A stretch of 39,069 nucleotides of DNA from Oscillospiraceae bacterium (lineage in GTDB: Bacteria; Bacillota; Clostridia; UMGS1883): contig JAFLUQ010000004.1 of NCBI GenBank assembly GCA_022508735.1, positions 1 through 39,069 on the forward strand, given 5' to 3'. This document shows positions 1-30,144 of this stretch, piece by piece. The notes under the pieces were generated by a model, which ran no database searches, had not been told where the DNA came from, and saw only the letters and a list, made by a program, of their open reading frames with translations. The position numbers were made by a program, and so were the translations under genes. The first letter of the stretch is position 1. The number at the start of each line of letters is the position of its first letter.

Positions 1-65
1 TCAGTTGGGAGAGCGCTTGCTTCGCATGTAAGAGGTCAGGGGTTCGAATCCCCTTGTCTCCACCA
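1..65 (+). tRNA. tRNA-Ala (anticodon CGC), 3' portion; the 5' end lies outside the window
   Basis: D-loop TCAGTTGGGAGAGC. Anticodon stem CTTGC/GTAAG with loop TTCGCAT, giving anticodon CGC. T-arm AGGGG-TTCGAAT-CCCCT. The acceptor 3' strand TGTCTCC carries the U70 expected for the G3:U70 Ala identity pair, followed by discriminator A and an encoded CCA at 63-65. Confidence 0.9.
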
Positions 66-1813: not shown

Positions 1814-4678
1814 CTATTTATTATATATTTCGATGATCCATGTTTGATTTCCGTCGGCCCCAAGCTCCTCCTGTGTAAAGCGGCCGTCCTTTTCTGTCAG
1901 GTACAGGCCGGAAAGCTCAGACCTTATCAGGTAAGTTCCGCCCCCCTGCTTTTCGAGGAACCAGCGCTGATTTTCGCCTCCCGCTGTGCGATAGGCGATT
2001 ATGCCTATGCCCGGGTCGGGATTGTGGTTGAGCACGTCCAGCGCTCTCTTTTCGGTGGAGTCGCCGGCTTCAAACTCGGCGCTGCTCTCCACGATATATG
2101 AACCGGTGAGCGTGTATGTGAAGCTCCAGAGCTGCGTTTCACCGGAAGCAAATTCTGCTGTGGTGAGGGCTTCTACCATTGGCTGATCGGGGCTGTAGCT
2201 GAGCGCCGCGCCGTCTTTGCCGGTGATAGTATACAGAGGCTTCGCTTCTTCGGCCTTCTCAGCCTCCGGCTCGGAGGCTTTTTCTTCAGCCTCGGGATAG
2301 GTCAGCCCGAGCGGCTCGGCCTTGATATTCACGCCGTTTGCCTTTGATATCATTATCCAGCTTATAACCGGGTCAAGGTTTCCGGCTATTGCGTGCTGAT
2401 CGCGAACTGTGGAAACGGTTATCGTGCCGTCGGCGGCGATTATCCCGCTTCGTGATATAACCTTCTGCCCGGCAGCGGGCGCAAGGCCGTCGGCCGCAAT
2501 GTAACCCTGCACCTTGATGTCCACCTTGCGGGCCTTTTCGCCCCACGGGTCATATACTCCCACAAACACGTCATAGGCCTCGCTCGGGTCGACCTCGAAC
2601 TTATATGTCAGTCCGTCGCCCACCTTTCCGCCGTAATCATAGCGGACGGAGCGGAACATATTGCTGTCATCGCGGCGGCCGGAGCTGTTATCGGCAATAT
2701 AGCCCCATGTCTTACCCGTTTTTTCGTCAACGCCATAGGCCTGGTCGGGCACACTGTTAAGAAGCTCGCCGAGGCCGTTTATTACGTCAAATTCCGTCGT
2801 ATTATCTGCGCCGCAGTCGGCAAAGTAGATGAGGTTCTTGGGAATGTTATATATTTCGGCAGTTGTAGTAGTATCGGCAAAAAAACCTTCCACAAAATAG
2901 TGCCCGGGCATATTATAATCTATCCCTGCTCTGCTCCAGTCTACCGGGATATGCGATCTGAATCTTTCACCCTCTGCAAAAATAATGTCCGGGAGCTGTA
3001 CCGTCTCGCCGTATTTAACAAATATTGTATCAGGTTCGATAATCTTAACACCTATATCCTCCAGCGTCCACTCGTCTAACCAGTCTATGCGGATAGTTCC
3101 GTTCTCCTTCACCTCAATGGGCAGCCAGATAAAGCCGCTTTCGTCGTGGTGGGAGGGCCGCCAAGTGTCGGCAATGAAAATAAAGTGGCCTTTTTCGGCG
3201 TCTATGGGCAGGATATATGCGCTTTGACCGCCGTAGGTCAGGTCAGCGCCGTCACCCTTACACGGGTTGCCATGGCGCGTCCACGGGCCGAGAGGGCTCG
3301 GAGCCGTGGCATAGTCCGCCGCGTTAGGATCCCAGCCGGTGCAGCCGCTGGTTATCATATAATAGGTGTTGTTATACTTGAACAGCGCCGGGGCCTCGCG
3401 CCAGCCGCCGGGGATAGCATAGGTGGCCTCGCCCTCGCAGCTCAGGTAGTCGTCGCTCAGGCGGCAAACCGCCAGCGACGAATTCTCATCGGTAGAGAAA
3501 TATATGTAGGCCGCGCCGTCGTCGTCCTGATAAACGGTCATATCGCGCGACATTTTGTCGCCGGGGCGAAAGCTTTCAAGATACTCAAAGGGGCCGGTGG
3601 GGCTGTCGGCCACGGCCACGCCTGCGCGGCTGTAGCCGTACCAGCCGTTGTCGATGTGCATCCACATGACGTACTTGCCTGTCGCCTCGTTATAGAGCAC
3701 CTTGGGCCGCTCAAGCACCTCGCCCACGCGAATATCGCTCTCAGGATACTTTAGCGGCGCTTCGTCGGTACTTTCAAGCATTTCAAGAGCAAGGCCCTCA
3801 TAGGTCCAGTTATAGAGGTCAGAGGAGGAATAGCAGGCCACACCGATGCGCCAACCCCAGCCGGCATAGCGCTGAAGGTGCTCGGGCACCTCGGAGGCTC
3901 CTCTTGCCTCGCCGTACCAATAGTACTTCTGCGTGGCTTCGTCCCAGATAATTCCGCCGCCATGGGCTTGAACAAGGCCGCCGTTCTGATCATATATGGG
4001 AGCACTATTCATGAAGCGATCCCTTTCCGGGAACATGGCGCCGTAGGCCAGAGCAGTCAGCTCCTTAGCACGCGCTTTGTCGCTCTCGCTTCCGTTTATA
4101 AAGCGGTTAATGGCGTCATCATAGTATTTTTCTGCTATCGGAGCCATAAGCTTATTATCAAATTCATCTATATTATTGCGAATGTAATTCAGCATATGGT
4201 CGGTGTTATCGTCGCCAACAGTAACGGGCAATACCGCGGCGAGATCAAGCCTTGTTTCGATAAGCTCCTCAGCTACTTCGGCTGAAACAGTGCTTTGCGA
4301 GCCGTATTCCTCTGTAACTGAAGCAATTTCGCCCTCCCAATAAATAGGAAACTTAGTCAGATTGCGCTGCATAGCCATATACGCCATAGTCCAGGCTTCC
4401 ATGTAAGTTATGGTGTCATTCGGCCTGAATTTGCCGTCATCTATATTTATCACTCCCGCGGCGAGGGCACCCTCGACCATATCAGCATAGCCGTCTTTAG
4501 CGGAAACATCGCTAAAGCTGCCGGAATAAAGCCGTTCGCGAATATCAAAAGCGTCGGCCAGCTTCTCCAAAAATTCCACACGGGTTAAGGCCTCCTCCGA
4601 TCCGAACACCGCTGTCGGCATGGCAGACAGCACCAGCGACAGAGCCATAACAAGGCAGATAATTCGTATTTTTCTCAT
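1814..4678 (-). CDS. Secreted multidomain glycoside hydrolase: signal peptide, SLH-like repeat, GH43-like beta-propeller, malectin-like module, ricin-type (CBM13-like) beta-trefoil
   Basis: Start re-called to the ATG at 4678 (MRKIRIICLVMALSLVLSAMPTAVFG), which has GGGAG 6 nt upstream; the track start at 4705 has no SD. SLH-like segment: FSDVSAKDGYADMVEGALAAGVI...DGKFRPNDTITYMEA. GH43-like segments: GGGIIWDEATQKYYWYGE and ERPKVLYNEATGKYVMW. C-terminal QxW-type motifs: QRWFLEKQ and QTWIIE. Confidence 0.75.
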   Translation of the reverse strand: MRKIRIICLVMALSLVLSAMPTAVFGSEEALTRVEFLEKLADAFDIRERLYSGSFSDVSAKDGYADMVEGALAAGVINIDDGKFRPNDTITYMEAWTMAYMAMQRNLTKFPIYWEGEIASVTEEYGSQSTVSAEVAEELIETRLDLAAVLPVTVGDDNTDHMLNYIRNNIDEFDNKLMAPIAEKYYDDAINRFINGSESDKARAKELTALAYGAMFPERDRFMNSAPIYDQNGGLVQAHGGGIIWDEATQKYYWYGEARGASEVPEHLQRYAGWGWRIGVACYSSSDLYNWTYEGLALEMLESTDEAPLKYPESDIRVGEVLERPKVLYNEATGKYVMWMHIDNGWYGYSRAGVAVADSPTGPFEYLESFRPGDKMSRDMTVYQDDDGAAYIYFSTDENSSLAVCRLSDDYLSCEGEATYAIPGGWREAPALFKYNNTYYMITSGCTGWDPNAADYATAPSPLGPWTRHGNPCKGDGADLTYGGQSAYILPIDAEKGHFIFIADTWRPSHHDESGFIWLPIEVKENGTIRIDWLDEWTLEDIGVKIIEPDTIFVKYGETVQLPDIIFAEGERFRSHIPVDWSRAGIDYNMPGHYFVEGFFADTTTTAEIYNIPKNLIYFADCGADNTTEFDVINGLGELLNSVPDQAYGVDEKTGKTWGYIADNSSGRRDDSNMFRSVRYDYGGKVGDGLTYKFEVDPSEAYDVFVGVYDPWGEKARKVDIKVQGYIAADGLAPAAGQKVISRSGIIAADGTITVSTVRDQHAIAGNLDPVISWIMISKANGVNIKAEPLGLTYPEAEEKASEPEAEKAEEAKPLYTITGKDGAALSYSPDQPMVEALTTAEFASGETQLWSFTYTLTGSYIVESSAEFEAGDSTEKRALDVLNHNPDPGIGIIAYRTAGGENQRWFLEKQGGGTYLIRSELSGLYLTEKDGRFTQEELGADGNQTWIIEIYNK

Positions 4679-4718
4679 TCCACTCCCTCTTTCCCATGCA
4701 AACAATATATCTTATTTA

Positions 4719-4747: not shown

Positions 4748-4825
4748 TAGCTATTTTTGCTGTATTGCCTCAGATTCACCTATCCGGGGCACACGGCGTA
4801 TTATGTAGCAAAAGGGGTGAGGGTC

Positions 4826-4990
4826 ATGGGCAGGCGCACAGGGCCAAGGCGCAGCTGCAGCCCGGTTGGAGTAGGCATACTGGCCTTCGTTTTTGGCATA
4901 TTTACGGCAATGATTCTGCCTGTCACTCTGCTTGCCGTTATAGAGGGCGGGCTTATAATCGTGCTGGGTATCATATTATTAAGGAGGTGA
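4826..4990 (+). CDS. Hypothetical small membrane protein (54 aa, two predicted TM helices)
   Basis: MGRRTGPRRSCSPVGVGILAFVFGIFTAMILPVTLLAVIEGGLIIVLGIILLRR. The strong SD AAGGGGTGAGGG lies just upstream of the internal ATG at 4826. Its stop TGA (4988-4990) directly follows the AAGGAGG (4981-4987) that serves the next gene. Confidence 0.5.
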   Translation: MGRRTGPRRSCSPVGVGILAFVFGIFTAMILPVTLLAVIEGGLIIVLGIILLRR

Positions 4991-4996
4991 CGGCAA

Positions 4997-5071
4997 GTGA
5001 AAATATACGTAGTCAGGCTTCCGAAGGTACTTAACGCCATTGCACGAATGTTTTTAAGAGTCAAAGATTAG
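4997..5071 (+). CDS. spoVM: Stage V sporulation protein M (SpoVM), 24 aa, GTG start; too short to appear in the ORF track
   Basis: The translation (M)KIYVVRLPKVLNAIARMFLRVKD matches B. subtilis SpoVM, recalled as MKFYTIKLPKFLGGIVRAMLGSFRKD, at K2, Y4, LPK, L, I, R, L and the terminal KD. AAGGAGG lies 9 nt upstream. A terminator follows. Confidence 0.8.
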   Translation: MKIYVVRLPKVLNAIARMFLRVKD

Positions 5072-5084
5072 GCATAAGAGAGTC

Positions 5085-5115
5085 AAAAGGGGACTGCCGA
5101 AGCAGTCCCCTTTTT
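5085..5115. terminator. Bidirectional intrinsic terminator shared by spoVM (+) and mini-ORF 1 (-)
   Basis: AAAA-GGGGACTGC-CGAA-GCAGTCCCC-TTTTT, a 9-bp perfect stem. Confidence 0.8.
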
Positions 5116-5132: not shown

Positions 5133-5306
5133 TTACAGCCAACCCTCGCTTGCACCCATCCAAATTTCAGCCTTTGTTTCGTCAGTGTCAGAAACACTGC
5201 TCATATTGGATTTTTTATTAACCAGATTGGCTGACGCAGCCATCACGTCCGTATCAGGAGTGAGGGTTGTCATCTCAACCTCAGGAGTTTCAAAATACTT
5301 TCTCAT
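5133..5306 (-). CDS. Mini-ORF 1 (57 aa), acidic, no signal peptide; paralogue of 25810..25989; unknown function
   Basis: MRKYFETPEVEMTTLTPDTDVMAASANLVNKKSNMSSVSDTDETKAEIWMGASEGWL. GGAGG immediately follows the stop of the upstream giant gene, and the gap to the ATG is 15 nt. It shares M-[KR]-[KR]-YFE-x-P-x-V and a C-terminal IWxG with the second copy. It is absent from the ORF track, whose shortest listed ORF is 60 aa. Confidence 0.65.
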   Translation of the reverse strand: MRKYFETPEVEMTTLTPDTDVMAASANLVNKKSNMSSVSDTDETKAEIWMGASEGWL

Positions 5307-5321
5307 TTTTATTAATCCTCC

Positions 5322-8300
5322 TTATACTTCTTCAATAAAGTCGAGCTCGCCGGCAACAGTCTCGTCGGCAGCAGCTTCTTCAACCTCAAGAACGAATTCT
5401 ACGTCTTCAAGGTAGATAACAGCCTCAAGAGCCATAGCATCGCCGATCGTTATTGTCTTTCCGTCATTGGATACAGTAACGCCGCTCTTGATATCAGACT
5501 CTTTATCAGAAGCATACTTAATTGTGTCTGCGAATCTTACACCCGCATTGTAAACCTCTGCCTTAAGATCAATGGTGATCGTGTCATCATTATCTGTGAG
5601 GGTCATGAGCAGCTCCGCCTCAGCTGTAAGCTTTCTGTTAGTGAGATAGATACCGCCGTTATTCAGAACCTCCATAGCCTTAACAAGCTGATCCTCTTTA
5701 ATAACAGTATCAGCGTTCTTGGCTGCGAAGTCTGCTACTGCCTGTGCAACAAGGCTGTATACGCTGACAACAGCTGTTGCCTTGCTTTCAACTTCGTCGG
5801 TCACACCAACCGCCTGATAGCTGGCGTTAGTATCGGCAGTGGAGAAGGCCACGCCGGACTCACCGTTAAGCTCGCCAACTACGGGGTTCTCCTTATCGCC
5901 GTTCTTGTAAACCTTCACGCTGTCACCGCTGTAGGTGAAGTCGATAGTGAAGTCTTCAGCCTCATCATCCCAGCCAAGGCTTACGATAGGAGCGGGAATA
6001 GTTGCAGTTACTTCTTTGATCTCATCCTCACTGAGAGCAGTATTGAAGAACATGAAGTTGTCGATAGTGCCGTTGAAGTCCTGATTGTTGCCACGGTTAG
6101 CAGTATCAGTATACCACTGGCCACGACCGATGAGGTTGCGGTCTGTTGCGCCGGCGATCTGATATGCCTGATAGGTAACATTTGTGCCTGTAGCCTGAGT
6201 AACGATATTGTTATCACTGTCTACAGTATAAACTGTTGTTGTCTTTGTAGCAGCGTTATAGCTTGTAACAAGCCAATACTCGCCGCTAAGATATGCTCCG
6301 CCCTGAACCATAAGCGTTGTGCCGCCGGCATACTTGACACCCGCCTGATATCTGTTTCCGTCACGGGTATTAAGTCTGGTAAACATGCTGTTGCCGGAGT
6401 TCATTCCGAAGTCATAAAGTCTGGGATCCTGTCTGTCTGTACCACCGGAGATCTTCTGAACAACGGTGTAGCTGCGAACGCCCTTAAGGAAGTCATGAGG
6501 AACGTTCAGATAGCCGTTTGTATCCCAACCGTCAGCAGTGTTGGCGGTAAGGTCAAGCTTGCCGTTGTCAAAGTTAGCCTTGCTTCCCTTAACCTCGGCG
6601 TCAAGGCCGTTGCCGCTTACGTCGGGAACAATATTTCCGTCTACATTGTTGAAATCATAGTAGAACATAAGGTTCTCGTCCATAACGTCAACCTTTGCAA
6701 GCACGGTCACTGTGAACACCTTAGTGCTGTCGCCGGCCGAGGCTGTAAGAGTTACAACATGATCCTCGCCGTCACGGGTAACAGCGCCGGTAGCATCCAT
6801 AACGCCGTCGCCGTCTACAGTCCAGGTCACCGTCTTTCCGTCAGCCGTCTTAGTGGGAAGAACAAGGTCGGTAACAGTCTCAGACGGAATAGAGAGACCA
6901 TTGATAGTGTCAACACTGTCTTCATCAAACTCCTCGGCCGCGGCGCGAACCTCAGCCTGAGTGAAGGCCACATCGGCAGAGCGGAGATTGGTGATCATGC
7001 CCTCTCCGCCAAGTGTAACTGTGTCGCCAAGAGATACGTTCACGTTCTGCATGGTGGCGTCGATAAGGCCGTTTACATATGTAACGAGCTCAGAGCCGTC
7101 ATAGGTAATTGTGTAGTTGATCCAGCCGAGAGAACTCTGGCCCTTTGTGCCGCCGGTGCCGCCAAGACTGAAGTACCAGGCGGAGTCACTAAACAGATTC
7201 TGGCTCTTTTCAACAACACTGCCAACTGTGAGCTTGGGAGCCACAGCAGCATAATTGTGTGTGTTGTCAACTGTCTGCTTTTCAAGGTCGATCTTAAGGT
7301 TGCCGCTCTTGAGAAGAGTACCTTCGGCAGCCATATCGCTCTGGAGAAGCTCCAGAGAAATAGTGAACTCCTTGCCGGCAGTAATGGGAGCGGTCGCTGT
7401 AACGCCGTCGCCAACGCCGTAAATTTCTTCATCAACGCCGTCAAACTTGTTTACAACCGGAAGCTCCTTAAGCTCAGTTGTTGTCATCATCTGAACGGGA
7501 TAACCCAGACCGCCGTGCTGGTTGCTGTGGATCCAGTAGTAATAGTCACCGTTGAACCAGGTCAGGCGCAGGTCGCCTTCCTCGCTGCCGTTGGAAACGT
7601 AGGGACGGGCGTTATCCTTCATGGAATCCTTTGTGATAAATTCTTCGTCTGCAAGATCGGTGTAACTATCGTTAAGAGTCCATTTTACGATCTCCCAAAT
7701 TCTGCCGAATGCGCCGTCAACAGGAATAGATGCATAAACGATATGGGGATCAGCCTTATCAATGGACATACCGCCGCTGTAGCAGTTCTCAGTAGCGGGT
7801 GTCTGGTGGAAGAATGTGTTGAAGGAGGGATCGGGCAAATCGAAAATGTTCCAGCCACTGCCTGTATATGTAGCATAGTAGTAGTTGTGAACCTTTTTGC
7901 TGCCGTCGATCTTGACCATAGCTATAACAGGGAACTCAACCTTATTTTCACCTTCAACTCTTTCGTCAAGAGCGATCTCCCAAACCCAGTCACGGTAGTT
8001 GGCTGTACGATCTACCACATAATTGGGGTCGGTCTCGTTACCGCTTACAGTGTATACATTGCTCGATTTAAGGTCGCTGAGCTCGTTGCCCTTCATATCG
8101 TAAAGCTTGAGCTCGGGGATGCTGATATAGTTGCAGTAGATGGGGTTTGTACCTACATTGTCAGGATGTGTGCCGGTATAGGTGAGCCAGATCTTGTCCT
8201 TGCCGTTGGAAGCGTACTTGGCATAGGGCCTGATATTGCTGCCCAGAGTGGACTGCACGATCTGTCTGGGCCCCCAGGTAAATTTAGTTGTAAAGCCGTT

Positions 8301-9794
8301 ATCCTTAGAAGGCATTTCGAGCTGAGCGATCGTAGGATGCCATTCCACACCTCTCCATGTGAGATAGATGTGATCAGGGTCGCTTTCAAGAATAACAGGG
8401 TTGGGATATGTTGTATTCTTCTCCGTAGCGAGTCTGTGCTCCTCACCAAAGGTAGTAATATCATAGGCCTCCTTAGAGACTCTGTAGTAGAAGCAGGGTT
8501 CGTCGGTATGACGGGAGTAGAATATCATAATCTTATGGTCGGGGAGTTCGAGGAAGGTGGGGTTGTTATGGTCGTCGGGCTGCAGATTGCTGCGGACGAG
8601 TACTTCCTCGTAGTCGCCGGTAAGATTGTCATACTGTGTAGCTCTTACGTTACCTACGTTATCTATGTAGCCAATATAAGTGTAGTTCACGCCGTCACCC
8701 TTAACAGTAAGCGTTCTGGGATCGGCGAACCAGCAGGTGGCTCCGTCGGCGATAACGCTGCCGGTAATACCTGCGCCGTCAAATTTATTATACATGATCG
8801 TAATTACGTTGTCACTTCCTGCCTTAGGAGTTATAGTGAGGGTAGAATCCTTTTCACTATAGGTGTAGATGTCATCGCCGATTTTAATAGGCGCTGTGCT
8901 CTGGGGAACATATGTGAAGCTTTCTCCAACGGTAGCGAGAACCTCCTTATCATCCACACCGGAGGGGGTGCCGTCGGAAAGCACGGTCTTAACCGTCACC
9001 TTAACTACCTTTTCACTGTCAACATTAGCAGAGATCTTAAGTCCCTGAAGAGCCATAGCGGCATACTGGTTATTCCACTGAGGAATATTTGCGCTGATGC
9101 TGCCAAAGCCATTTATGCTGTCGATAGTCTCAGTTGTGATGACTTCAAATTCACCGTTTTTATCACTGTCATAGCTGTAGGTAACAGTATATGTTCCATC
9201 AGCAGCCTTTACCGCCTCAATGCGGAAAGGTACACCGCGCATACCGAGAACCTTGCTGCGATCATGGCTTACAAGAGCATATGCTGTACCGTTCACGCCG
9301 CCGATATCCATACCGGCATTCTGCACGCCGCCTGAGGTCGCGCTTCCCGCGTCAGTATAAACTGTGGCAAACTCTTTGCCGTCGACGTCAAGGAAATGCC
9401 ATCTCTGATACAAATCAGAGGCTTCCTGCGTTGCATAAGTGTACTCGATAACGATTTTATCGCTACCGGCGGTTATGGCGCCATCATCAAAGGTCGCAAC
9501 CTTTGTTTCGTCAGTTCCGTTTGCCCTTGCGCCTGTGCGGAAGAACATGAGTCCCGCAACACCCCATGGCGCAACGTTCCATGCGCCACCTGTGCTCCAC
9601 TGGGAACTGAACAGGGCACCACCCTCGTTGGCAGACCAGCCATAATCGGCAAGCTGGATATCGCCATGAGTGGCGGTGTCAATTTCGGCCGCGTCAAAGA
9701 CCACTGTTTCCTCAACAGCCGCAAATGCGTTAAGCACCGGGCATATTGAAAGAATCATTGCCAAGGCCACGACCAGGGAAATAAATTTTTTCAT
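5322..9794 (-). CDS. Giant secreted modular protein 1 (1490 aa): signal peptide, shared N-module, Ig-like domain, BNR_4-like beta-propeller, LamG, Ig-like, LamG, shared C-module
   Basis: Signal peptide MKKFISLVVALAMILSICPVLNAFA. BNR_4-like motifs QPDDHNNPTFLELPDHKIMIFYSRH. LamG_3-like segments LMFYYDFNN...GNGLDAEV and FNGTIDNFMFFNTALSEDEI. The C-terminal 221 aa are homologous to the C-terminus of 26003..30061. AAGGAGAG lies 7 nt upstream of the ATG. Confidence 0.85.
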   Translation of the reverse strand: MKKFISLVVALAMILSICPVLNAFAAVEETVVFDAAEIDTATHGDIQLADYGWSANEGGALFSSQWSTGGAWNVAPWGVAGLMFFRTGARANGTDETKVATFDDGAITAGSDKIVIEYTYATQEASDLYQRWHFLDVDGKEFATVYTDAGSATSGGVQNAGMDIGGVNGTAYALVSHDRSKVLGMRGVPFRIEAVKAADGTYTVTYSYDSDKNGEFEVITTETIDSINGFGSISANIPQWNNQYAAMALQGLKISANVDSEKVVKVTVKTVLSDGTPSGVDDKEVLATVGESFTYVPQSTAPIKIGDDIYTYSEKDSTLTITPKAGSDNVITIMYNKFDGAGITGSVIADGATCWFADPRTLTVKGDGVNYTYIGYIDNVGNVRATQYDNLTGDYEEVLVRSNLQPDDHNNPTFLELPDHKIMIFYSRHTDEPCFYYRVSKEAYDITTFGEEHRLATEKNTTYPNPVILESDPDHIYLTWRGVEWHPTIAQLEMPSKDNGFTTKFTWGPRQIVQSTLGSNIRPYAKYASNGKDKIWLTYTGTHPDNVGTNPIYCNYISIPELKLYDMKGNELSDLKSSNVYTVSGNETDPNYVVDRTANYRDWVWEIALDERVEGENKVEFPVIAMVKIDGSKKVHNYYYATYTGSGWNIFDLPDPSFNTFFHQTPATENCYSGGMSIDKADPHIVYASIPVDGAFGRIWEIVKWTLNDSYTDLADEEFITKDSMKDNARPYVSNGSEEGDLRLTWFNGDYYYWIHSNQHGGLGYPVQMMTTTELKELPVVNKFDGVDEEIYGVGDGVTATAPITAGKEFTISLELLQSDMAAEGTLLKSGNLKIDLEKQTVDNTHNYAAVAPKLTVGSVVEKSQNLFSDSAWYFSLGGTGGTKGQSSLGWINYTITYDGSELVTYVNGLIDATMQNVNVSLGDTVTLGGEGMITNLRSADVAFTQAEVRAAAEEFDEDSVDTINGLSIPSETVTDLVLPTKTADGKTVTWTVDGDGVMDATGAVTRDGEDHVVTLTASAGDSTKVFTVTVLAKVDVMDENLMFYYDFNNVDGNIVPDVSGNGLDAEVKGSKANFDNGKLDLTANTADGWDTNGYLNVPHDFLKGVRSYTVVQKISGGTDRQDPRLYDFGMNSGNSMFTRLNTRDGNRYQAGVKYAGGTTLMVQGGAYLSGEYWLVTSYNAATKTTTVYTVDSDNNIVTQATGTNVTYQAYQIAGATDRNLIGRGQWYTDTANRGNNQDFNGTIDNFMFFNTALSEDEIKEVTATIPAPIVSLGWDDEAEDFTIDFTYSGDSVKVYKNGDKENPVVGELNGESGVAFSTADTNASYQAVGVTDEVESKATAVVSVYSLVAQAVADFAAKNADTVIKEDQLVKAMEVLNNGGIYLTNRKLTAEAELLMTLTDNDDTITIDLKAEVYNAGVRFADTIKYASDKESDIKSGVTVSNDGKTITIGDAMALEAVIYLEDVEFVLEVEEAAADETVAGELDFIEEV

Positions 9795-9832: not shown

Positions 9833-9861
9833 ATTTTACACTATTATTCTTTTTTTGTCAA
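9833..9861 (-). promoter_or_regulatory. Sigma-A-type promoter for giant protein 1
   Basis: On the minus strand: TTGACA (9861-9856), a 17-nt spacer, then TAAAAT (9838-9833). Confidence 0.55.
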
Positions 9862-22271: not shown

Positions 22272-22395
22272 TCTTGCAAAGTAGGATCACGCGCGTTAAG
22301 TGAGAGAGGGACGGGAAGTTGCCCTCTCTACGAAAGACTGAGGTCAAATTTTACTTCGTCTGCGGTGCGTGCTCCGCATTCCGTTGCTACGAGAA
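22272..22395 (+). promoter_or_regulatory. THF (tetrahydrofolate) riboswitch aptamer, THF-I class
   Basis: AGUAGGAUCACGCGCGUUAAGUGAGAGAGGGACGGGAAGUUGCCCUCUCUACGAAAG...GCGGUGCGUGCUCCGCAUUCCG aligns segment by segment with the THF-I aptamer as I recall it: ..CGCGUUAAGUG-hairpin-A(U/C)GGGA(U/A)GU(C/U)G-hairpin-ACGAAG...GCGGUG...GCAUCCG. It sits upstream of a folate ECF S-component gene. Confidence 0.85.
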
Positions 22396-22453: not shown

Positions 22454-22972
22454 ATGCAAAAAAAACCGCAAATTTCCACCAAAATAATTGTGACCGTGGG
22501 TGTGCTCACAGCCCTCAGCGTGCTTTTCCGCCTCTTTCTGGGCTATCCGCAGACCGGGAACACCCGCTATGATCTGGGCTTTCTTCCGATCGCTGCCGTA
22601 GGGCAGATGTTCGGCGCACTCTGGGGCGGAGTCAGTTATGTGCTGGCGGATTTGGTTGGCACCTTTTTCACGGGGCAGTCTCCCTACCCTCCCATCACGC
22701 TGTGCAAATTCCTGTTTGGCGCCATATTCGGCCTTTATTTCTATGGGCGCAGGCTCTCGTTATCGAGAATACTCTTCTGCGTGCTGACCATATCCGTGGT
22801 CGTAGACCTCATCGCCATGCCTTTTGCCCTCTCCCCCCTTATGGGCGTGGGCGCTTATGCCATACTCGTGCAGCGGCTGGTTCAGGTGGCAGTTATGTTT
22901 CCGGTGCGCACCGTTTCTATCTGGCTGATGGACAGATACATCGGAAGGTATTATATGGAAAAATACAAATAA
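22454..22972 (+). CDS. folT: ECF transporter S component, folate family (FolT-like), 172 aa
   Basis: Multi-TM protein of S-component size and layout (KIIVTVGVLTALSVLFRLF...). It lies downstream of a THF riboswitch and upstream of folC. Confidence 0.75.
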   Translation: MQKKPQISTKIIVTVGVLTALSVLFRLFLGYPQTGNTRYDLGFLPIAAVGQMFGALWGGVSYVLADLVGTFFTGQSPYPPITLCKFLFGAIFGLYFYGRRLSLSRILFCVLTISVVVDLIAMPFALSPLMGVGAYAILVQRLVQVAVMFPVRTVSIWLMDRYIGRYYMEKYK

Positions 22973-25767: not shown

Positions 25768-25807
25768 ACGTAAAAACAGTGGGCCATGCGGCCCACTGTT
25801 TTTACGT
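25768..25807. terminator. Bidirectional intrinsic terminator shared by the HAD gene (+) and mini-ORF 2 (-)
   Basis: ACGTAAAAACAGTGGGCC-ATGC-GGCCCACTGTTTTTACGT is an 18-bp perfect inverted repeat that includes the A and T tracts. Confidence 0.85.
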
Positions 25808-25809
25808 GA

Positions 25810-25989
25810 TCAATGATTAAAGCCTTTCCAGATACTGTAATCTTTGGAGGTGTCGTCAGTGAGTTTGTTACTGTAGTCAACGGCATTGATCTTTGCAAGA
25901 TTCATTGAAACAAGCGGCTCATCCATGATGGAATTAGCCGGATCCAGCGCCTCTATGCACACCTGGGGAATTTCAAAATATCTCTTCAT
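25810..25989 (-). CDS. Mini-ORF 2 (59 aa), paralogue of 5133..5306; unknown function
   Basis: MKRYFEIPQVCIEALDPANSIMDEPLVSMNLAKINAVDYSNKLTDDTSKDYSIWKGFNH. Start re-called to the ATG at 25989, with GGAGG 8 nt upstream. The track's start at 26055 would overlap the upstream gene. Confidence 0.65.
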   Translation of the reverse strand: MKRYFEIPQVCIEALDPANSIMDEPLVSMNLAKINAVDYSNKLTDDTSKDYSIWKGFNH

Positions 25990-26002
25990 GTTTATTACCT
26001 CC

Positions 26003-29000
26003 TCAGACTTCTTCCACGAAACTAAGCTCGCCGGAAACGGCCTCGTCCGCGGCACTTTCCGCTATATCCTCAAGCACGAATTCAATGTCCTCAAGGTAGA
26101 TGACAGCGGCCTCAAGGCCGATGCCGTTCAGGCCCACAATTTTGGCACTTGCGCCGTTTACCTCAACGGACAATGATGTTCCGTCAGAAGCCTCAACAGC
26201 CATTTTGTCGCCAAAGGTCAGGCCCGCCTTAACCACGTTTTCGTTGAGCGTGATCTCGTCGCCTTTGAGCTCCATGATTAGCGCAGCCTCATCGTTAAGC
26301 TTCCAGGCGCTATTCTCCTTGATGAGGTAGAAGCCGCCGTCATTGAGTACCTTGAGCGCGGCATCCTTCTGATCGGATTTGATAGGAGCATCAAAGTTCT
26401 TAAGAGCCTTAGCCACAAGGCTGTATACACTGGCAGGATCGCTGGCGTTAACGCCTACATAACCATTAGAGTCAGTCACCTTGGCGGTGTATATGGCGTT
26501 GGTGTGAACCGGAGCAACCGCAATACCCTTGATATCATCATTTACTGTAATATCCTTCTCGCCGATAGATGTAGTACCGTTAAATACTTCAACTGTGTAT
26601 GTTCCGGTCACGCCCTCGCCGAACAGGAAGTCAACAGTAAAGTTCTTACCATCCCAGCCAAGAGCAGGAGTTACACTGGCAACATCAACTGTCTTGCCAA
26701 CAATTTTAATGTCATTGCCTCTGAGTCTGTACAAACCACCGTGGCTGTCGCCGAAGATAACTACCTTTCCGCTTTCACCAATGATTCTGTTCATCTTTTC
26801 CGCATCAAGGGAAATGCTGACTGGAGTTGCGTCAGTGTTATCCGCATTAACACTATTAGTGTAGAAAGCCACCTTGTTTTCATCGGTAAAATTGGCAGTT
26901 ACTGCCGTAAAGTCGGAAATATCCAGTTTCTGATAATCCTCATAGCTGATTGCATAGAAATTCACATTGTTTGTACCGGTAGTATAGTCACGCAGTCTTG
27001 TTGCGTCAAGCGTGTAAGAATTATGTCCTCTTTCAACCTCAAGAATCGCAACACCGACACGTCTGTTATCGCTGGCTGCACCCACAGCACCCCAGTTATA
27101 TGCCGAAAAATTGGTATCCAATGTTCCGCCTTCGTAGTATGCCAGTGTGCGGCCTACAGTCTTGCGCTCGTCTTTCTGTATGGTGTAAACATTGCTCGGC
27201 AAAGCAGCAACCGTAAGATCGATACTTCCGTTATAGGGAACAGGTATAACTGCTGAACCTGCCGAAGTAGGCGTATCAGTAACAACGTAGTAGCCGTAGT
27301 CTCCACCCTTGAATAACTCGTGACCCTCGGTATAAAGCGTACCAACCATGAGCTGCTTTGTTTCGGACTGCTCGATCGTGCCTTTATAATTAACTGTAAT
27401 ATCCTGAGCCTCATTGCAGCTCTTGAGAAGTCTAACGATATCGTCAGTGTTTGACCCCGCATTATTGACCATAACAACAGGGAGCGAGGAAAGCCAGTTG
27501 GGATAGCTTGTTCCACTAAGGGCGCTGTACAAATTATTATTATCCGTAGTAGCCTGATTTACAAGGCTGGTAAGAATACTCTCTGACTGCGCCTGCATTA
27601 CGCGGAACATGTCAACGATCGGATGGTTTCCATCTCTTTTGCTCATTTTATCGATCTGATTGTTTATATAACCCGCACTGAAAGAACTCTGTATTTTTGT
27701 ACCAGATGAAGGCTCATAATTCGAGTAAAGCTTTCCGGCAAAGGATTCCGCACTGCTGTATCCGCGAAGAATAAATTTGCCGATACTTGAAAGAGTTGCT
27801 TTATCCCTGCCAAAAAGAACGATGTTTGCCTTTGTTCCGTTATTTGTAAGTCCTCCGTAGGTTTGTGCCGCTAAATCAGAATCCTTATTAAGGGTCACAA
27901 AATCATTTATTCCGGTTGTCGTCAGCAGGCTGTCAATGGCGCGCCATGTGTCAGGTGTACTGTTGCCATCGGAATTAACATTATCCCATGCCTCCTGAAA
28001 GTCAAGAACAATTATTTCGCCGGGATGCTCCTTAGCCCACTGTGCCACCGTAACCATTATCGGTGCAAATTCGCCGCTGAGGAATCCGTGCGTTGTGTAA
28101 AACACACTGTTTGTATGAGGTGCAGTATGTTTTGTTTTAAATATAATCCCAGTTTCTATAACGAAATCACTTGATGAGCGCGAAAGGCGAATGTCAAAAT
28201 AACGAACACCGCTGTCTAGCAGCCCAAGAGCATCCTTTTCCTGTGCCTTGCTTGCCGATGCTCCTGTGCCGCCATCAGCCTTTGTTACTGTTTGAGAACC
28301 CGTGTCACCCTGCTGACTTCCAGCTGCATCCATCTTATTCGTTATCTCCGCCGTGAACGCATCATGCGCCCCCAGCATATTAAGAGAAATAAAGGGCGTG
28401 TCATTGGCAACATTATCAAAGAAGCGTTCCGGTTTTGTTGCCTCATATGTAAGGGTTATGGTTTTGTCGCTTGTATTTACTTCCTTTTTCTTAAATACAT
28501 ATCCCTCTTTATACGGAATTACAAGGTTGGGGAATATCTTTTCTCCATTATATCCGAGGTCCGTCGATTCTGTCGTGGTAACTGTATATTCATCAGCCTT
28601 CACGCCGCTGAATTTAACCGTGTAATTCTGAATGCTGCTGGCCGCTTCGGGAGCGTAGAACTTAACGTTGCTTATCTTCAGGTCGCCGTTAGCGCCGCTG
28701 CCGTTGGTAAGCATGGTGATCGTGTTTATGTAATCGGAATCTGTACGGAAGTGACGTGTGCCGCTCTCATACGTGCTGCCGTCTGCCTTGGTAAGAGTAA
28801 GGTTATATTCATCTGTATAGGCATTGGCAGTCATAAAAATTCTATAAGTCTCGCCTGCCGCAACGGTAGTTATTGACGGAAGATTTGAATTATTACCCTT
28901 GCCATCACCGCCCGTGGGGCTAAAGCTGCCATTTGTGCCAAGACCGATCTGCCCGGCACCGAAAATCTTACCGTCCGCGCCTATCTGAACGGAGGAGTCA

Positions 29001-30061
29001 CGTATGGCGTTAACTGTCAGATCAAATTCCATGCTGAATTCCTGTGACAGACTGACGGGCAGATATACAACATTGCCCGGCTGTCCGTTGTAGGATTCCT
29101 GATCCGGCATGGCAAAGGTCATGGGGTAAACGACAATGGTGGTGCTTACGTCAGTCCCTCCGGCCGTACCTTTAAGTTCAAAGGTTTTTACATCTGAACC
29201 GGTTGTAAAATCAGCGTTTTCCCATGTGACAGGAGTCTCTGTTCCACGGATAGAAACTGTTTTAGGAAGAATGGGTTCGTTACCGCTGATCACGCTTATT
29301 GGTGCAACATAGGATTCCGGCATCACAGCACCGATTGTAAGGTCAATGAAACCGATATGCTCGTAATTATCCCAATAACCGCCAAGACCTTGAATCGCTC
29401 CAAAACCATTAATCACATCCGCAGCTGAATTATTTGTTGCAACCTTTTTACCGTCTACATAGTATTCAACGGTATGGGTGGCTCCGTCGGCATTGTTATA
29501 TGCAACAATAGCCATATCCGTGCCAATTTCAGGATAGCCCATAGCATAATATCCGTCGCTATTTGTTTCATCAGCAACCGTATGGTTTTTATCTAATTTA
29601 AGAAAAGCAATTTCTTTTCCGTTTGAATCTTTGAAGGAAAAGTCATAATAGCATGTGCCACCCGCACCCGGACCGACCTGCCCCTTATGCTTCCACTCAA
29701 TTATTACCTTTTCGGCACCTTTAGCCTGAGCAGCTGCAGGGGCGGAAACAGTCGCATTAAGGTCAGTATTAACCGGGCTGTAAAACTGCAAGGTTATTCC
29801 CTCATTATATGATCTCAGATTTGCATACCCGGCATTGACAGATGTCGACCAGCCCGACCAGTTCGACGCAACCGGCGCGTTACCATCGTTGTCTGTTCCC
29901 ACTAAGCTGTTGTCAGGAGCGCTCCATATTACGGTTGCACCTTCAATAGTGTTGATAACCGTAGTAGACGAAGCTGCCCCGGCGGTGATCGCCAATCCTG
30001 GGACCAGGGCCGTGATCATGGCTATTGCCAAAAGCATGGCCAAAAGTTTTTTGGTTTTCAT
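26003..30061 (-). CDS. Giant secreted modular protein 2 (1352 aa): signal peptide, shared N-module, Ig-like domain, LamG-like domain, PI-PLC X-domain-like module, beta-rich region, shared C-module
   Basis: Start re-called to the ATG at 30061 (MKTKKLLAMLLAIAMITALVPGLAITAGA), with GGGAGGA upstream. The track start at 30229 overlaps asnB. PI-PLC-like motifs: LGAHDAF, GVRYFDIRLS and YTTHGF. The C-terminal 220 aa are homologous to those of 5322..9794. Confidence 0.85.
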   Translation of the reverse strand: MKTKKLLAMLLAIAMITALVPGLAITAGAASSTTVINTIEGATVIWSAPDNSLVGTDNDGNAPVASNWSGWSTSVNAGYANLRSYNEGITLQFYSPVNTDLNATVSAPAAAQAKGAEKVIIEWKHKGQVGPGAGGTCYYDFSFKDSNGKEIAFLKLDKNHTVADETNSDGYYAMGYPEIGTDMAIVAYNNADGATHTVEYYVDGKKVATNNSAADVINGFGAIQGLGGYWDNYEHIGFIDLTIGAVMPESYVAPISVISGNEPILPKTVSIRGTETPVTWENADFTTGSDVKTFELKGTAGGTDVSTTIVVYPMTFAMPDQESYNGQPGNVVYLPVSLSQEFSMEFDLTVNAIRDSSVQIGADGKIFGAGQIGLGTNGSFSPTGGDGKGNNSNLPSITTVAAGETYRIFMTANAYTDEYNLTLTKADGSTYESGTRHFRTDSDYINTITMLTNGSGANGDLKISNVKFYAPEAASSIQNYTVKFSGVKADEYTVTTTESTDLGYNGEKIFPNLVIPYKEGYVFKKKEVNTSDKTITLTYEATKPERFFDNVANDTPFISLNMLGAHDAFTAEITNKMDAAGSQQGDTGSQTVTKADGGTGASASKAQEKDALGLLDSGVRYFDIRLSRSSSDFVIETGIIFKTKHTAPHTNSVFYTTHGFLSGEFAPIMVTVAQWAKEHPGEIIVLDFQEAWDNVNSDGNSTPDTWRAIDSLLTTTGINDFVTLNKDSDLAAQTYGGLTNNGTKANIVLFGRDKATLSSIGKFILRGYSSAESFAGKLYSNYEPSSGTKIQSSFSAGYINNQIDKMSKRDGNHPIVDMFRVMQAQSESILTSLVNQATTDNNNLYSALSGTSYPNWLSSLPVVMVNNAGSNTDDIVRLLKSCNEAQDITVNYKGTIEQSETKQLMVGTLYTEGHELFKGGDYGYYVVTDTPTSAGSAVIPVPYNGSIDLTVAALPSNVYTIQKDERKTVGRTLAYYEGGTLDTNFSAYNWGAVGAASDNRRVGVAILEVERGHNSYTLDATRLRDYTTGTNNVNFYAISYEDYQKLDISDFTAVTANFTDENKVAFYTNSVNADNTDATPVSISLDAEKMNRIIGESGKVVIFGDSHGGLYRLRGNDIKIVGKTVDVASVTPALGWDGKNFTVDFLFGEGVTGTYTVEVFNGTTSIGEKDITVNDDIKGIAVAPVHTNAIYTAKVTDSNGYVGVNASDPASVYSLVAKALKNFDAPIKSDQKDAALKVLNDGGFYLIKENSAWKLNDEAALIMELKGDEITLNENVVKAGLTFGDKMAVEASDGTSLSVEVNGASAKIVGLNGIGLEAAVIYLEDIEFVLEDIAESAADEAVSGELSFVEEV

Positions 30062-30115
30062 TTTCTGTTTTCCTCCCTTTTTGTTTTTAACTTGAACCAA
30101 TATTAACCTGAGTAT

Positions 30116-30144
30116 AGTATACCATAACCACACCCCGGACGCAA
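30116..30144 (-). promoter_or_regulatory. Sigma-A promoter (extended -10) for giant protein 2
   Basis: On the minus strand: TTGCGT (30144-30139), a 17-nt spacer ending in TGg, then TATACT (30121-30116). Confidence 0.55.

Follow-up and report, generated by a model that had tools for sequence, protein, structure and literature searches.

The defining unit of the family described here comprises the last ~235 amino acids of a large secreted protein (the C-module) and a mini-ORF located a few nucleotides downstream of its gene, while the N-terminus shared by some of the large proteins lies outside this unit. The carriers belong to one uncultured, little-known lineage of gut Clostridia, in which the cassette is present many times per genome; two copies are found in the window, i.e. 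the whole stretch of 39,069 nucleotides that was analyzed. A literature search yielded no description of such a pair, and no names are attached to the database entries of family members, which suggests that the C-module and the mini-protein are a previously undescribed pair.

Two paralogous cassettes in the window

The initial annotation had noted a large exoprotein gene followed by a mini-ORF, a layout repeated in the window on the same strand (-). Sequence comparisons confirmed that both large-ORF/mini-ORF pairs are paralogous cassettes, whose features are collected in Table 1. The large proteins (ORF1 and ORF2) are homologous at the C-terminal end (39% identity over 257 columns, E=2e-27) and at the N-terminal end (26% identity over 289 columns, E=3e-7), and so are the two mini-ORFs (30% identity, E=3e-7). 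Mini-ORF 1 starts 15 nt past the TAA stop of ORF1, and mini-ORF 2 starts 13 nt past the TGA stop of ORF2, with a GGAGG at 25998-26002. The true start of ORF2 is at 30061, with a Shine-Dalgarno sequence (GGGAGG) at 30072-30077; a longer form beginning at 30229 was discarded, since it extends into the asnB terminator and the promoter. Exoprotein 1 has syntenic relatives beside recA or GH43, namely P0016 (L130) and P0014 (L008).

Table 1. Position of the features of both cassettes within the window.
Feature	Position	Strand	Details
Cassette 1 promoter-like site	9833..9861	-	TTGACA-17-TAAAAT, 11/12 consensus positions; consensus match only
Large exoprotein 1 gene (ORF1)	5322..9794	-	1490 aa
Sec-type signal peptide, exoprotein 1	9720..9794	-	aa 1-25, MKKFISLVVALAMILSICPVLNAFA, by inspection
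N-module, exoprotein 1	8985..9719	-	aa 26-270; common to ORF2 and a subset of the family
BNR_4 cargo domain, exoprotein 1	7839..8684	-	aa 371-652, Pfam E=2.5e-36
C-module part 1, FN3-like beta-sandwich, exoprotein 1	5778..5987	-	aa ~1270-1339
C-module part 2, alpha/beta domain, exoprotein 1	5403..5777	-	aa ~1340-1464
Acidic disordered tail, exoprotein 1	5325..5402	-	aa ~1465-1490, end ...GELDFIEEV-COOH
Shine-Dalgarno GGAGG, mini-ORF 1	5317..5321	-	abuts TAA stop (5322-5324) of ORF1
Mini-ORF 1	5133..5306	-	57 aa, MRKYFETPEVEM...EIWMGASEGWL
Cassette 1 bidirectional terminator hairpin	5085..5110	.	GGGGACTGC-TTCG-GCAGTCCCC-TTTT, read from sequence
Cassette 2 promoter-like site	30116..30144	-	TTGCGT-17-(TGg)TATACT, read by eye; unflagged by promoter scan
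Large exoprotein 2 gene (ORF2)	26003..30061	-	1352 aa, identical to P0012
C-module, exoprotein 2	26006..26725	-	aa 1113-1352, tail ...GELSFVEEV; E=1.7e-93 to profile
Mini-ORF 2 (P0008)	25810..25989	-	59 aa, MKRYFEIPQVCI...YSIWKGFNH
Cassette 2 terminator	25768..25807	-	18-bp stem then T-run

The regulatory and genomic context was also as proposed in that annotation. Each cassette has a candidate promoter of its own, that of cassette 1 located by consensus scan and that of cassette 2 by reading, and each ends at a terminator: in cassette 1 a bidirectional hairpin shared with a convergent SpoVM-like ORF of 24 aa at 4997-5071(+), the 70 nt 3' of mini-ORF 1 having an MFE of -26.9 kcal/mol, and in cassette 2 the stem on the (-) strand. 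Besides the SpoVM-like ORF, the flanking core genes encoding RecA/CinA, HAD and AsnB were confirmed.

Exoprotein 1 consists, in this order, of the signal peptide, the N-module, BNR_4, aBig_2, a weak LamG and the C-module, and its N-terminus (MKKFISLVVALAMILSICPVLNAFA followed by AVEE) resembles on inspection a Sec signal peptide; in exoprotein 2, signal peptide and N-module are followed by ~840 aa of cargo and the C-module. The cargo initially assigned to ORF1 was a BNR_4 plus two LamG domains. BNR_4 (PF15892) was clearly recovered, with 125.9 bits vs a gathering cut-off of 27.3, one LamG was reduced to a single weak Laminin_G_3 match under the Pfam cut-off (aa 1094-1260, E=0.0014), and the Pfam search, which also placed aBig_2 at aa 973-1033, gave no second LamG. 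The LamG-like and PI-PLC-X-like domains proposed for ORF2 could not be reproduced and are unconfirmed, because its central 840 aa had no match in Pfam or among PDB sequences (phmmer).

Distribution and predicted structure of the C-module

An exhaustive HMMER profile search was needed to delimit the family, since word-index homology searches yielded only 2-3 proteins; it located the C-module in only ~70 protein clusters among 1.84 billion. In every one of the 72 matches listed, which include ORF2 of the window as P0012, the module occupies the extreme C-terminus and the cargo upstream is variable. The proteins span 335-1982 aa, and profile matches together with Pfam annotation of 63 members bore out the idea that the cargo is swappable, a constant C-module standing behind unrelated domains such as BNR_4, LamG, heparinase II/III, GH43, GH32, M60, CBMs, LRR/BspA and F5/8-C. 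At least 12 copies of the cassette were counted in one MAG. Tails of the type present in the window were not found in GTDB species representatives (five chance matches only) or in JGI metagenome contigs, and collections of plasmids and phages contained no match either.

The N-module of ~230 aa had been considered part of the conserved device, and this view had to be abandoned: besides ORF2 itself, only seven of the 72 listed matches have it, and it has no counterpart in Pfam or among PDB sequences. The constant elements are instead a stereotyped signal peptide like that of exoprotein 1, which recurs across the family, the C-module and the mini-ORF.

According to the AF2 model, the C-module begins with an ordinary FN3-like domain of ~70 aa, with pLDDT >90 over strands 17-86 and with FN3 domains as the only top matches in Foldseek (probability of at most 0.97 and E about 1e-3). 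By sequence the resemblance is marginal, with weak monobody matches (E=0.3) and no Pfam fn3 match, and the profile of the C-module found nothing besides FN3 among PDB sequences. This domain is followed by a predicted alpha/beta domain, for which the best Foldseek results were E=0.12 and TM <=0.26 against the PDB, and E=0.02 and TM <=0.31 against BFVD, where a solved fold was taken as E<1e-3 or TM>0.5. Neither this second domain nor the mini-ORF matched a known family in Pfam, NCBIfam or Foldseek searches. Hence, of the earlier statement that the shared termini and the mini-ORF belong to no known family, what stands concerns the second domain, the mini-ORF and the N-module, and the FN3-like part has to be taken out of it. 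The C-terminal tail is predicted to be disordered (pLDDT <50) and carries a mean net charge of -8.6 over the last 28 aa. A VEFV stretch and a terminal motif, [DE]F[IV][PE]E[LIV], are conserved across the family, and both are unstructured in the AF2 monomer, as a binding motif should be.

No classical anchor had been recognized in the window proteins, and this observation now extends to the family: Pfam searches of both proteins and of 63 members found none, with SLH, LPXTG, dockerin, CWB and LysM all absent from those members and WxL from members and window proteins alike. The C-terminus is acidic and has neither a hydrophobic segment nor a basic stop. Neighbouring exoenzymes of the same genomes do bear SLH, including another enzyme within the window (1814-4705). 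Minimal family members (367-373 aa) are made up of the signal peptide, ~120 aa and the C-module, and their genes start 15 nt downstream of that of an M60 peptidase bearing a dockerin (Dockerin_1 at aa 163-213, E=3.1e-7, 30.9 bits vs a cut-off of 22.9), a position that would match the one expected of an anchoring scaffold. A cohesin was considered as the N-terminal domain of these ~370-aa proteins and rejected, as profile searches gave no Pfam Cohesin match at E<=10 and none against PDB sequences.

The mini-ORF is a conserved, co-inherited gene

The mini-ORF is a real gene, conserved and inherited together with the C-module. Elsewhere it is kept beside 45 of the 46 distinct C-module genes with available context, at 12-23 nt past the stop codon; P0019 in L128 is one natural member that does not have it. 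Control DNA (569 kb of loci) contained no match to either element, and no orphan mini-ORFs were found. An AGGAGG Shine-Dalgarno sequence lies directly 3' of the stop in all distinct cases (44/44), and a strong hairpin follows within 70 nt of the mini-ORF in 40 out of 43. The gene is under purifying selection, with Ka/Ks of 0.08-0.36 in orthologue pairs (0.28 for mini-ORF 1 and its L008 orthologue), and it co-diverges with its neighbour, the pairwise identities of C-modules and mini-proteins being correlated (r=0.76).

The mini-proteins have 52-64 residues, typically ~55, and are mildly acidic on average. Their conserved motifs can be summarized as MKKxFxxPx[IV]...L...[VI]M...D...W[KG]G, and across paralogues both ends (22 aa at the N-terminus, W[KG]G at the C-terminus) are conserved and the centre is variable; those of the window type end in WxGxxxGW[ILV], an aromatic, glycine-rich sequence. 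They have no signal peptide and no membrane segment (maximum KD15 0.9).

Several explanations for the origin or expression of the mini-ORF were discarded. A duplicated piece of the C-module is contradicted by an hhalign probability of 0.2%. Readthrough of the stop codon to give a fusion would be in frame in cassette 1, yet the gap is a multiple of 3 in only 26 of 45 cases, and no fused mini-protein exists among the representative proteins. A K-x3-W 'streptide-like' motif was noticed in the mini-proteins paired with the ~370-aa proteins and is absent from both of those in the window. Across 40 loci no accessory gene recurs beside the cassettes; neither does any transporter or peptidase, C39_2 having been seen once.

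Possible roles of the pair and comparison with known systems

We tentatively propose, with somewhat less than even confidence, that the cassette is a lineage-specific module for localisation or assembly, whose binding partner is obligate and coupled to it by translation, the binding, the compartment and the role in localisation being what we infer. The transcription unit would lead from the promoter through a Sec-exported multidomain protein targeting glycans or mucin, and an AGGAGG, to the ~55-aa protein and the terminator. The C-module would do the job held elsewhere by SLH, dockerin, CWB2 or the T9SS CTD, and the mini-protein would be its putative obligate cognate binding partner. A ribosome ending the tail may re-initiate 12-23 nt downstream, on the mini-ORF, and the mini-protein would therefore be made beside the fresh tail, in 1:1 amounts. 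Since it has no export signal, its binding to the tail and to the VEFV stretch, unpaired in the model, of its own large protein would most likely take place in the cytoplasm, where it might escort or chaperone the C-module in cis until this is translocated or handed on. The same lack of an export signal means that a simple role as an extracellular partner is not straightforward, and, the tail being strongly acidic and the mini-proteins mildly so, simple charge complementarity fails to explain binding. No other case is known to us in which the C-terminus of a Sec substrate has a cytoplasmic escort of its own. Alternatively, the C-module could have nothing to do with localisation and serve to bind carbohydrates or to form oligomers.

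A broader version of the escort proposal, which we regard as rather doubtful, is that the FN3, alpha/beta and acidic-tail elements form a signal on Sec substrates that is read together with a ~55-aa escort co-translated from the same ribosome, in a new sorting or surface-assembly pathway of monoderm bacteria. If true, this would be a new principle, in which a partner delivered in cis with each cargo determines the place at which a secreted enzyme is kept, or whether it is kept at all, and the modular tag and its partner would be reusable for surface display.

Among the rival explanations, the one that survives best, although we consider it unlikely, is that the mini-protein is itself exported by a leader-independent path, e.g. 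a dedicated ABC exporter reading the N-terminal motif, and acts outside as an adaptor or cap tying the C-module and tail to the wall, the membrane or the S-layer. Its conserved ends and variable centre fit recognition by a shared machine or a surface ligand, the linked large partner is extracellular according to its signal peptide, and the WxGxxxGW[ILV] terminus of window-type mini-proteins resembles a possible wall- or glycan-binding motif. However, the mini-protein is devoid of Sec and Tat signals and of hydrophobic segments, a cleavage motif of the GG type is not conserved, the neighbourhoods of the cassettes show no recurring transporter or peptidase, and the two ABC exporters of the window have no C39 domain.

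Much less probable is a mini-ORF product that works independently of the exoenzyme and is only co-expressed with it, as a leader-plus-core peptide of the RiPP, bacteriocin or pheromone kind. With its 52-64 aa, an N-terminus that is conserved and leader-like, a conserved Trp close to the C-terminal end and no Sec signal, the mini-protein is reminiscent of ComX-type or RiPP-type precursors. Against this, the 40 loci show no recurring gene for a modifying enzyme, a C39 peptidase or an exporter, no GG is conserved past the [VI]M motif, the sequence has none of the Cys, Ser or Thr patterns that RiPP cores typically show, and the mini-protein has no family match. More than ten 'pheromones', each co-diverging with the C-module of a different enzyme, would also be hard to rationalise.

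A toxin-immunity-like pair, in which the C-module would harm the producer before export and the mini-protein would neutralise it, seems slightly less probable still. A small co-diverging gene directly 3' of the gene for a large secreted protein is the layout given for polymorphic toxin-immunity cassettes in PMC3482391, a feature that by itself is unspecific. Polymorphic toxin systems combine an N-terminal trafficking part that is conserved with C-terminal toxin domains that are hypervariable; the conserved and variable ends are swapped in our family, with a C-module conserved in 72/72 matches behind variable cargo, and this cargo is CAZyme-like and of the nutrient-acquisition type (GH43, GH32, heparinase, M60, CBMs). 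Besides, the number of copies in one MAG (at least 12) argues against this explanation, no toxin family or fold was found with Pfam, NCBIfam or Foldseek, and a mini-protein of this length resembles two linear motifs with a variable linker. Least credible of all is that the act of translation alone matters (protection of the mRNA 3' end, or coupling to the termination hairpin) and the peptide is functionless: the tight spacing, the perfect Shine-Dalgarno sequence and the terminator directly after would suit it, but orthologue pairs have Ka/Ks values well below 1, residues are invariant across homologues of roughly 30% identity, and length and motif positions are kept.

The known surface retention of glycan-degrading enzymes in gut Firmicutes relies on few anchor types, namely SLH, sortase, cohesin-dockerin and CWB2. 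Here, a paralogous enzyme family has none of these anchors, and each C-module is genetically tied to a tiny protein devoid of signal. Should the pair act in localisation, a new principle of anchoring or escort would be gained, together with a compact tag and partner usable in display engineering; if it serves otherwise, e.g. in quality control or as a toxin-like safeguard, it still provides a rare conserved sub-60-aa protein with an identifiable partner, of a size readily missed by gene callers.

Regarding known systems, WXG100/T7SS substrates are helical hairpins of ~100 aa with a central WxG, whereas the mini-proteins have 52-64 aa with the WxG at the C-terminal end and no Pfam match to WXG100, and their large partners bear Sec signal peptides. 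FliS, the partner of flagellin, and T3SS chaperones are folded dimers of ~120-150 aa whose type III substrates have no Sec signal peptides. The mini-protein is likewise small, acidic, without an export signal and genetically tied to the disordered end of an exported partner, but those chaperones exist as one per substrate class, not per paralogue. The WxL/csc clusters of lactobacilli and enterococci, with a presumed action on plant glycans, are also lineage-specific and multi-copy; in them, a non-covalent surface module at the C-terminus is accompanied by small accessory proteins that bear signal peptides. Our cassettes share with them the multi-copy, lineage-specific arrangement in Gram-positive bacteria and the C-terminal module plus small accessory protein, and differ in having no match to WxL, DUF916 or LPXTG and a mini-protein with no signal peptide. 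As in the T9SS CTD cargo of Bacteroidota, a C-terminal module containing a beta-sandwich is present on dozens of unrelated secreted proteins, which it would mark for one common fate; unlike in that system, which has no partner gene per cargo, the hosts are monoderm, spore-forming Clostridia (SpoVM-like ORF), and there is no NCBIfam or Pfam CTD match. A further parallel in organization is that of the dockerin (cellulosomal) and SLH enzymes of Clostridia, many paralogous Sec-exported enzymes with unrelated cargo and one constant terminal module. In the C-module family, with no detectable dockerin, cohesin or SLH, that module is instead an FN3 domain, an alpha/beta fold without known relative and an acidic tail and, unlike in the known dockerin and SLH systems, nearly every cargo gene (45/46) is followed by a dedicated small gene.

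Two paralogous cassettes and their flanks

Re-deriving ORFs, spacing, homology, signals and flanks confirmed the two-cassette layout and the coordinates proposed in the initial annotation; window features are listed in the table. The real start of ORF2 is at 30061, with GGGAGG upstream. The homology claimed for the two large proteins at both ends holds in alignments of the C-ends (39% identity, 257 columns, E=2e-27) and the N-ends (26% identity, 289 columns, E=3e-7), as does that of the two mini-ORF products (30% identity, E=3e-7). Each cassette is bracketed by promoter-like sites and hairpin terminators and is flanked by housekeeping genes (RecA/CinA, a SpoVM-like 24-aa ORF, HAD, AsnB). The SpoVM-like ORF supports a spore-forming host and the spoVM flank named previously. 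The cargo assignments were less robust: in ORF1, BNR_4 was solid (as was aBig_2), but only one LamG match, a weak one, was obtained instead of two, and the LamG-like and PI-PLC-X-like domains attributed to ORF2 were not recovered, its central 840 aa having no match in Pfam or among PDB sequences. Mini-ORF 1 and ORF1 share the same frame, with TAA plus 12 nt between them (window 5304-5324); stop readthrough as a conserved trait was ruled out because only 26 of 45 cassettes are arranged in frame.

Features of the window
Feature	Position	Strand	Description
tRNA gene	1-62	+	5' end cut by window edge
GH43/SLH/RicinB gene	1814-4705	-	963-aa protein: GH43, one SLH domain, RicinB lectin
Small ORF	4823-4990	+	55 aa, strongly hydrophobic, just upstream of SpoVM-like ORF; no Pfam match
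SpoVM-like ORF	4997-5071	+	24 aa, GTG start, MKIYVVRLPKVLNAIARMFLRVKD
Hairpin	5085-5110		SpoVM-like ORF and mini-ORF 1 converge on it
Mini-ORF 1	5133..5306	-	57 aa; starts 15 nt past ORF1 TAA stop, behind GGAGG
ORF1, large exoprotein	5322..9794	-	1490 aa; typical Sec-type N-terminus
THF riboswitch	22275-22388	+	85.7 bits; upstream of ORF 22454-22972
Mini-ORF 2	25810..25989	-	59 aa; 13 nt past ORF2 TGA stop, behind GGAGG
ORF2, large exoprotein	26003..30061	-	1352 aa; same sequence as database protein P0012

A constant C-terminal module behind diverse cargo

A profile built from four C-modules (the last ~235 aa of the large proteins) retrieved 72 matches from 1.84 billion representative proteins, with E<1e-10 for 61 of these. 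Matching proteins span 335-1982 aa, and in full-length matches the alignment reaches the very last residues. At the N-terminus they have a stereotyped signal peptide, whose consensus among the matching proteins P0011-P0075, M..KK[IL]LS[LF]AVVLAMV..V[VI]P.FGL.ASA, is unusually uniform despite unrelated cargo; inheritance with the cassette seems to cover both protein ends, beyond the C-module alone. Between them lies highly diverse cargo (Laminin_G_3, aBig_2, Big_4, LRR_5/BspA, BNR_4, heparinase II/III, GH43, GH32N, M60, F5/8-type-C, CBM4_9, CBM96, MucBP, beta-helix), which bears out the cargo swapping initially proposed: as a Sec substrate, the large partner carries exchangeable cargo directed at glycans or mucin. 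The ~230-aa N-module common to ORF1 and ORF2, previously counted among the shared termini, recurs in only seven other members and is a separable domain outside the constant device. As had been noted for the window, classical anchors were absent, here from all 63 family members scanned. Adjacent enzymes in genomes carrying C-module proteins use SLH, and the GH43/SLH/RicinB protein beside the cassette indicates that the organism anchors some enzymes via SLH and uses the C-module on others. This gene also follows the orthologous cassette in locus L008.

The constant part consists of FN3, a novel domain and an acidic tail. An AlphaFold2 model from a 25-sequence alignment (pLDDT 84, pTM 0.80) divides into an FN3-like sandwich, an alpha/beta domain with two helices plus some seven strands, and a disordered stretch of the final ~26 residues. 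The FN3-like part, with Foldseek matches to FN3 domains only, is the only described fold in the module; the alpha/beta domain, also modelled alone (pLDDT 80), had no significant structural neighbour (best E=0.12 in PDB, 0.02 in BFVD). Tails average a net charge of -8.6 over 28 aa and fall into two types, the window type ...YLEDVEFVL...ADExVSGELDF[VI]EE[VI] and a second, ...LSLDSVNIEFVETLIEE.EA.GADA..DF[IV]PEL.

The window-type tail, not found in GTDB species representatives or JGI metagenomes, is contained in ENA and Logan assemblies and in the rabbit MAG GCA_947629615.1, where recA (88.6% identical to that of the window), a BNR_4 exoprotein and a mini-ORF follow in the window's order; identity of the window RecA to any species representative is at most 74-79%. 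The 33 GTDB-genome loci trace to no more than five MAGs of 'uncultured Clostridia' from rabbit gut, and at least 12 cassette copies lie in one of them. Plasmid and phage collections gave no match, and no source names these proteins.

Minimal members of ~370 aa comprise a signal peptide, a ~120-aa domain and the C-module, and start 15 nt behind an M60 peptidase of ~1780 aa with an N-proximal Dockerin_1 (aa 163-213). This position hints that they serve as scaffold or anchor; sequence searches of their N-domain gave no cohesin signal. Peptidase, ~370-aa protein and mini-ORF form a three-gene operon in L001 (616-7311), and likewise in L003, L004, L006, L007 and L009, followed in most of these loci by sbcD/sbcC.

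Linkage and evolution of the mini-ORF

Loci were collected by looking up exact proteins and by scanning GTDB genomes with a profile; every ORF of 30 aa or more in them was scored against mini-protein and C-module HMMs. A same-strand mini-ORF homologue starts 12-23 nt past the stop in 45 of 46 distinct C-module genes, so the pairing suggested from the window extends to other genomes. (A)GGAGG directly after the stop codon precedes all distinct minis (44/44), and a strong hairpin lies within 70 nt downstream in 40 of 43. The sole exception is P0019 in locus L128 (1158-7170), where an unrelated gene begins 58 nt downstream; its cargo is heparinase II/III, CBM96, MucBP and LamG, the downstream gene is GCS2-family and an SLH protein lies further on. 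No mini-ORF homologue was found apart from a C-module in the loci scanned, nor in 569 kb of control loci. Other than the pair, no gene family recurs beside cassettes; a RelB/YoeB pair (247-763) and a Peptidase_C39_2 gene (6019-7074) flank one cassette in L135, a single occurrence.

Across pairs, C-module identity correlates with mini identity (r=0.76), and therefore the pair duplicates and diverges as a unit. Ka/Ks is 0.08-0.36 for orthologous minis and ~1.06 for two within-genome paralogues of one MAG (L010 4718-4897 and L011 4724-4903), whose changes cluster in the central region. The gene pair is thus conserved, co-evolving and, by its coupling signals, translationally coupled.

The N-terminus is conserved among minis (MKKxFxxPx[IV]xxxx[LF]xxxxx[VI]M), the middle varies save for one conserved Asp, and the C-terminus is again conserved ([YF]xxW[KG]G), with a second Trp (...GW[ILV]) in the window type. 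Neither a signal peptide nor a hydrophobic segment was found. The mini-protein, which the initial annotation could not place, had no match in Pfam, NCBIfam or PDB sequences; kinship with the C-module was rejected, the two showing no similarity. The C-terminal [DE]F[IVT][PE]E[LIV] of the large proteins resembles the mini N-terminal x-F-xx-P-x-[IV] family-wide (window 5325-5345 and 5277-5306), which, judged from sequence, may reflect mimicry or strand pairing, or be due to chance.

Possible roles of the pair

Our tentative preference is that the C-module replaces SLH-type anchors as a localisation or assembly module, with the mini-protein as its putative cognate binding partner. The mini-protein would be made by re-initiation right after tail release and may escort the tail and an unpaired 'VEFV' strand in the cytoplasm; such a cis-acting escort would be the most economical model, since the mini has no export signal and re-initiation would follow the tail.

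An exported adaptor would fit the conserved mini termini, but both export signal and exporter are lacking and we consider it unlikely. An independent RiPP or pheromone peptide is highly improbable, as maturases and exporters are lacking and the co-divergence of mini and C-module would be left unexplained. A toxin-immunity pair, whose gene order fits, is more improbable still: its polarity is wrong, conservation lying at the C-terminal end in this family (compare PMC3482391), cargo type and copy number are unfitting, and there is no toxin fold. A purely translational or regulatory role, contradicted by purifying selection, is the least probable.

That the pair embodies a new principle of sorting or escort is less likely than not, yet a real prospect. 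Domain 2 of the C-module, the tail motif and the mini-protein all lack a match among curated families and solved structures. Dockerin, SLH, CWB2 and the T9SS CTD are known cases in which numerous exoenzymes carry one constant terminal module, and in this the cassettes resemble them; what sets the cassettes apart is an obligate, signal-less, per-cargo mini-partner, for which we know of no precedent.
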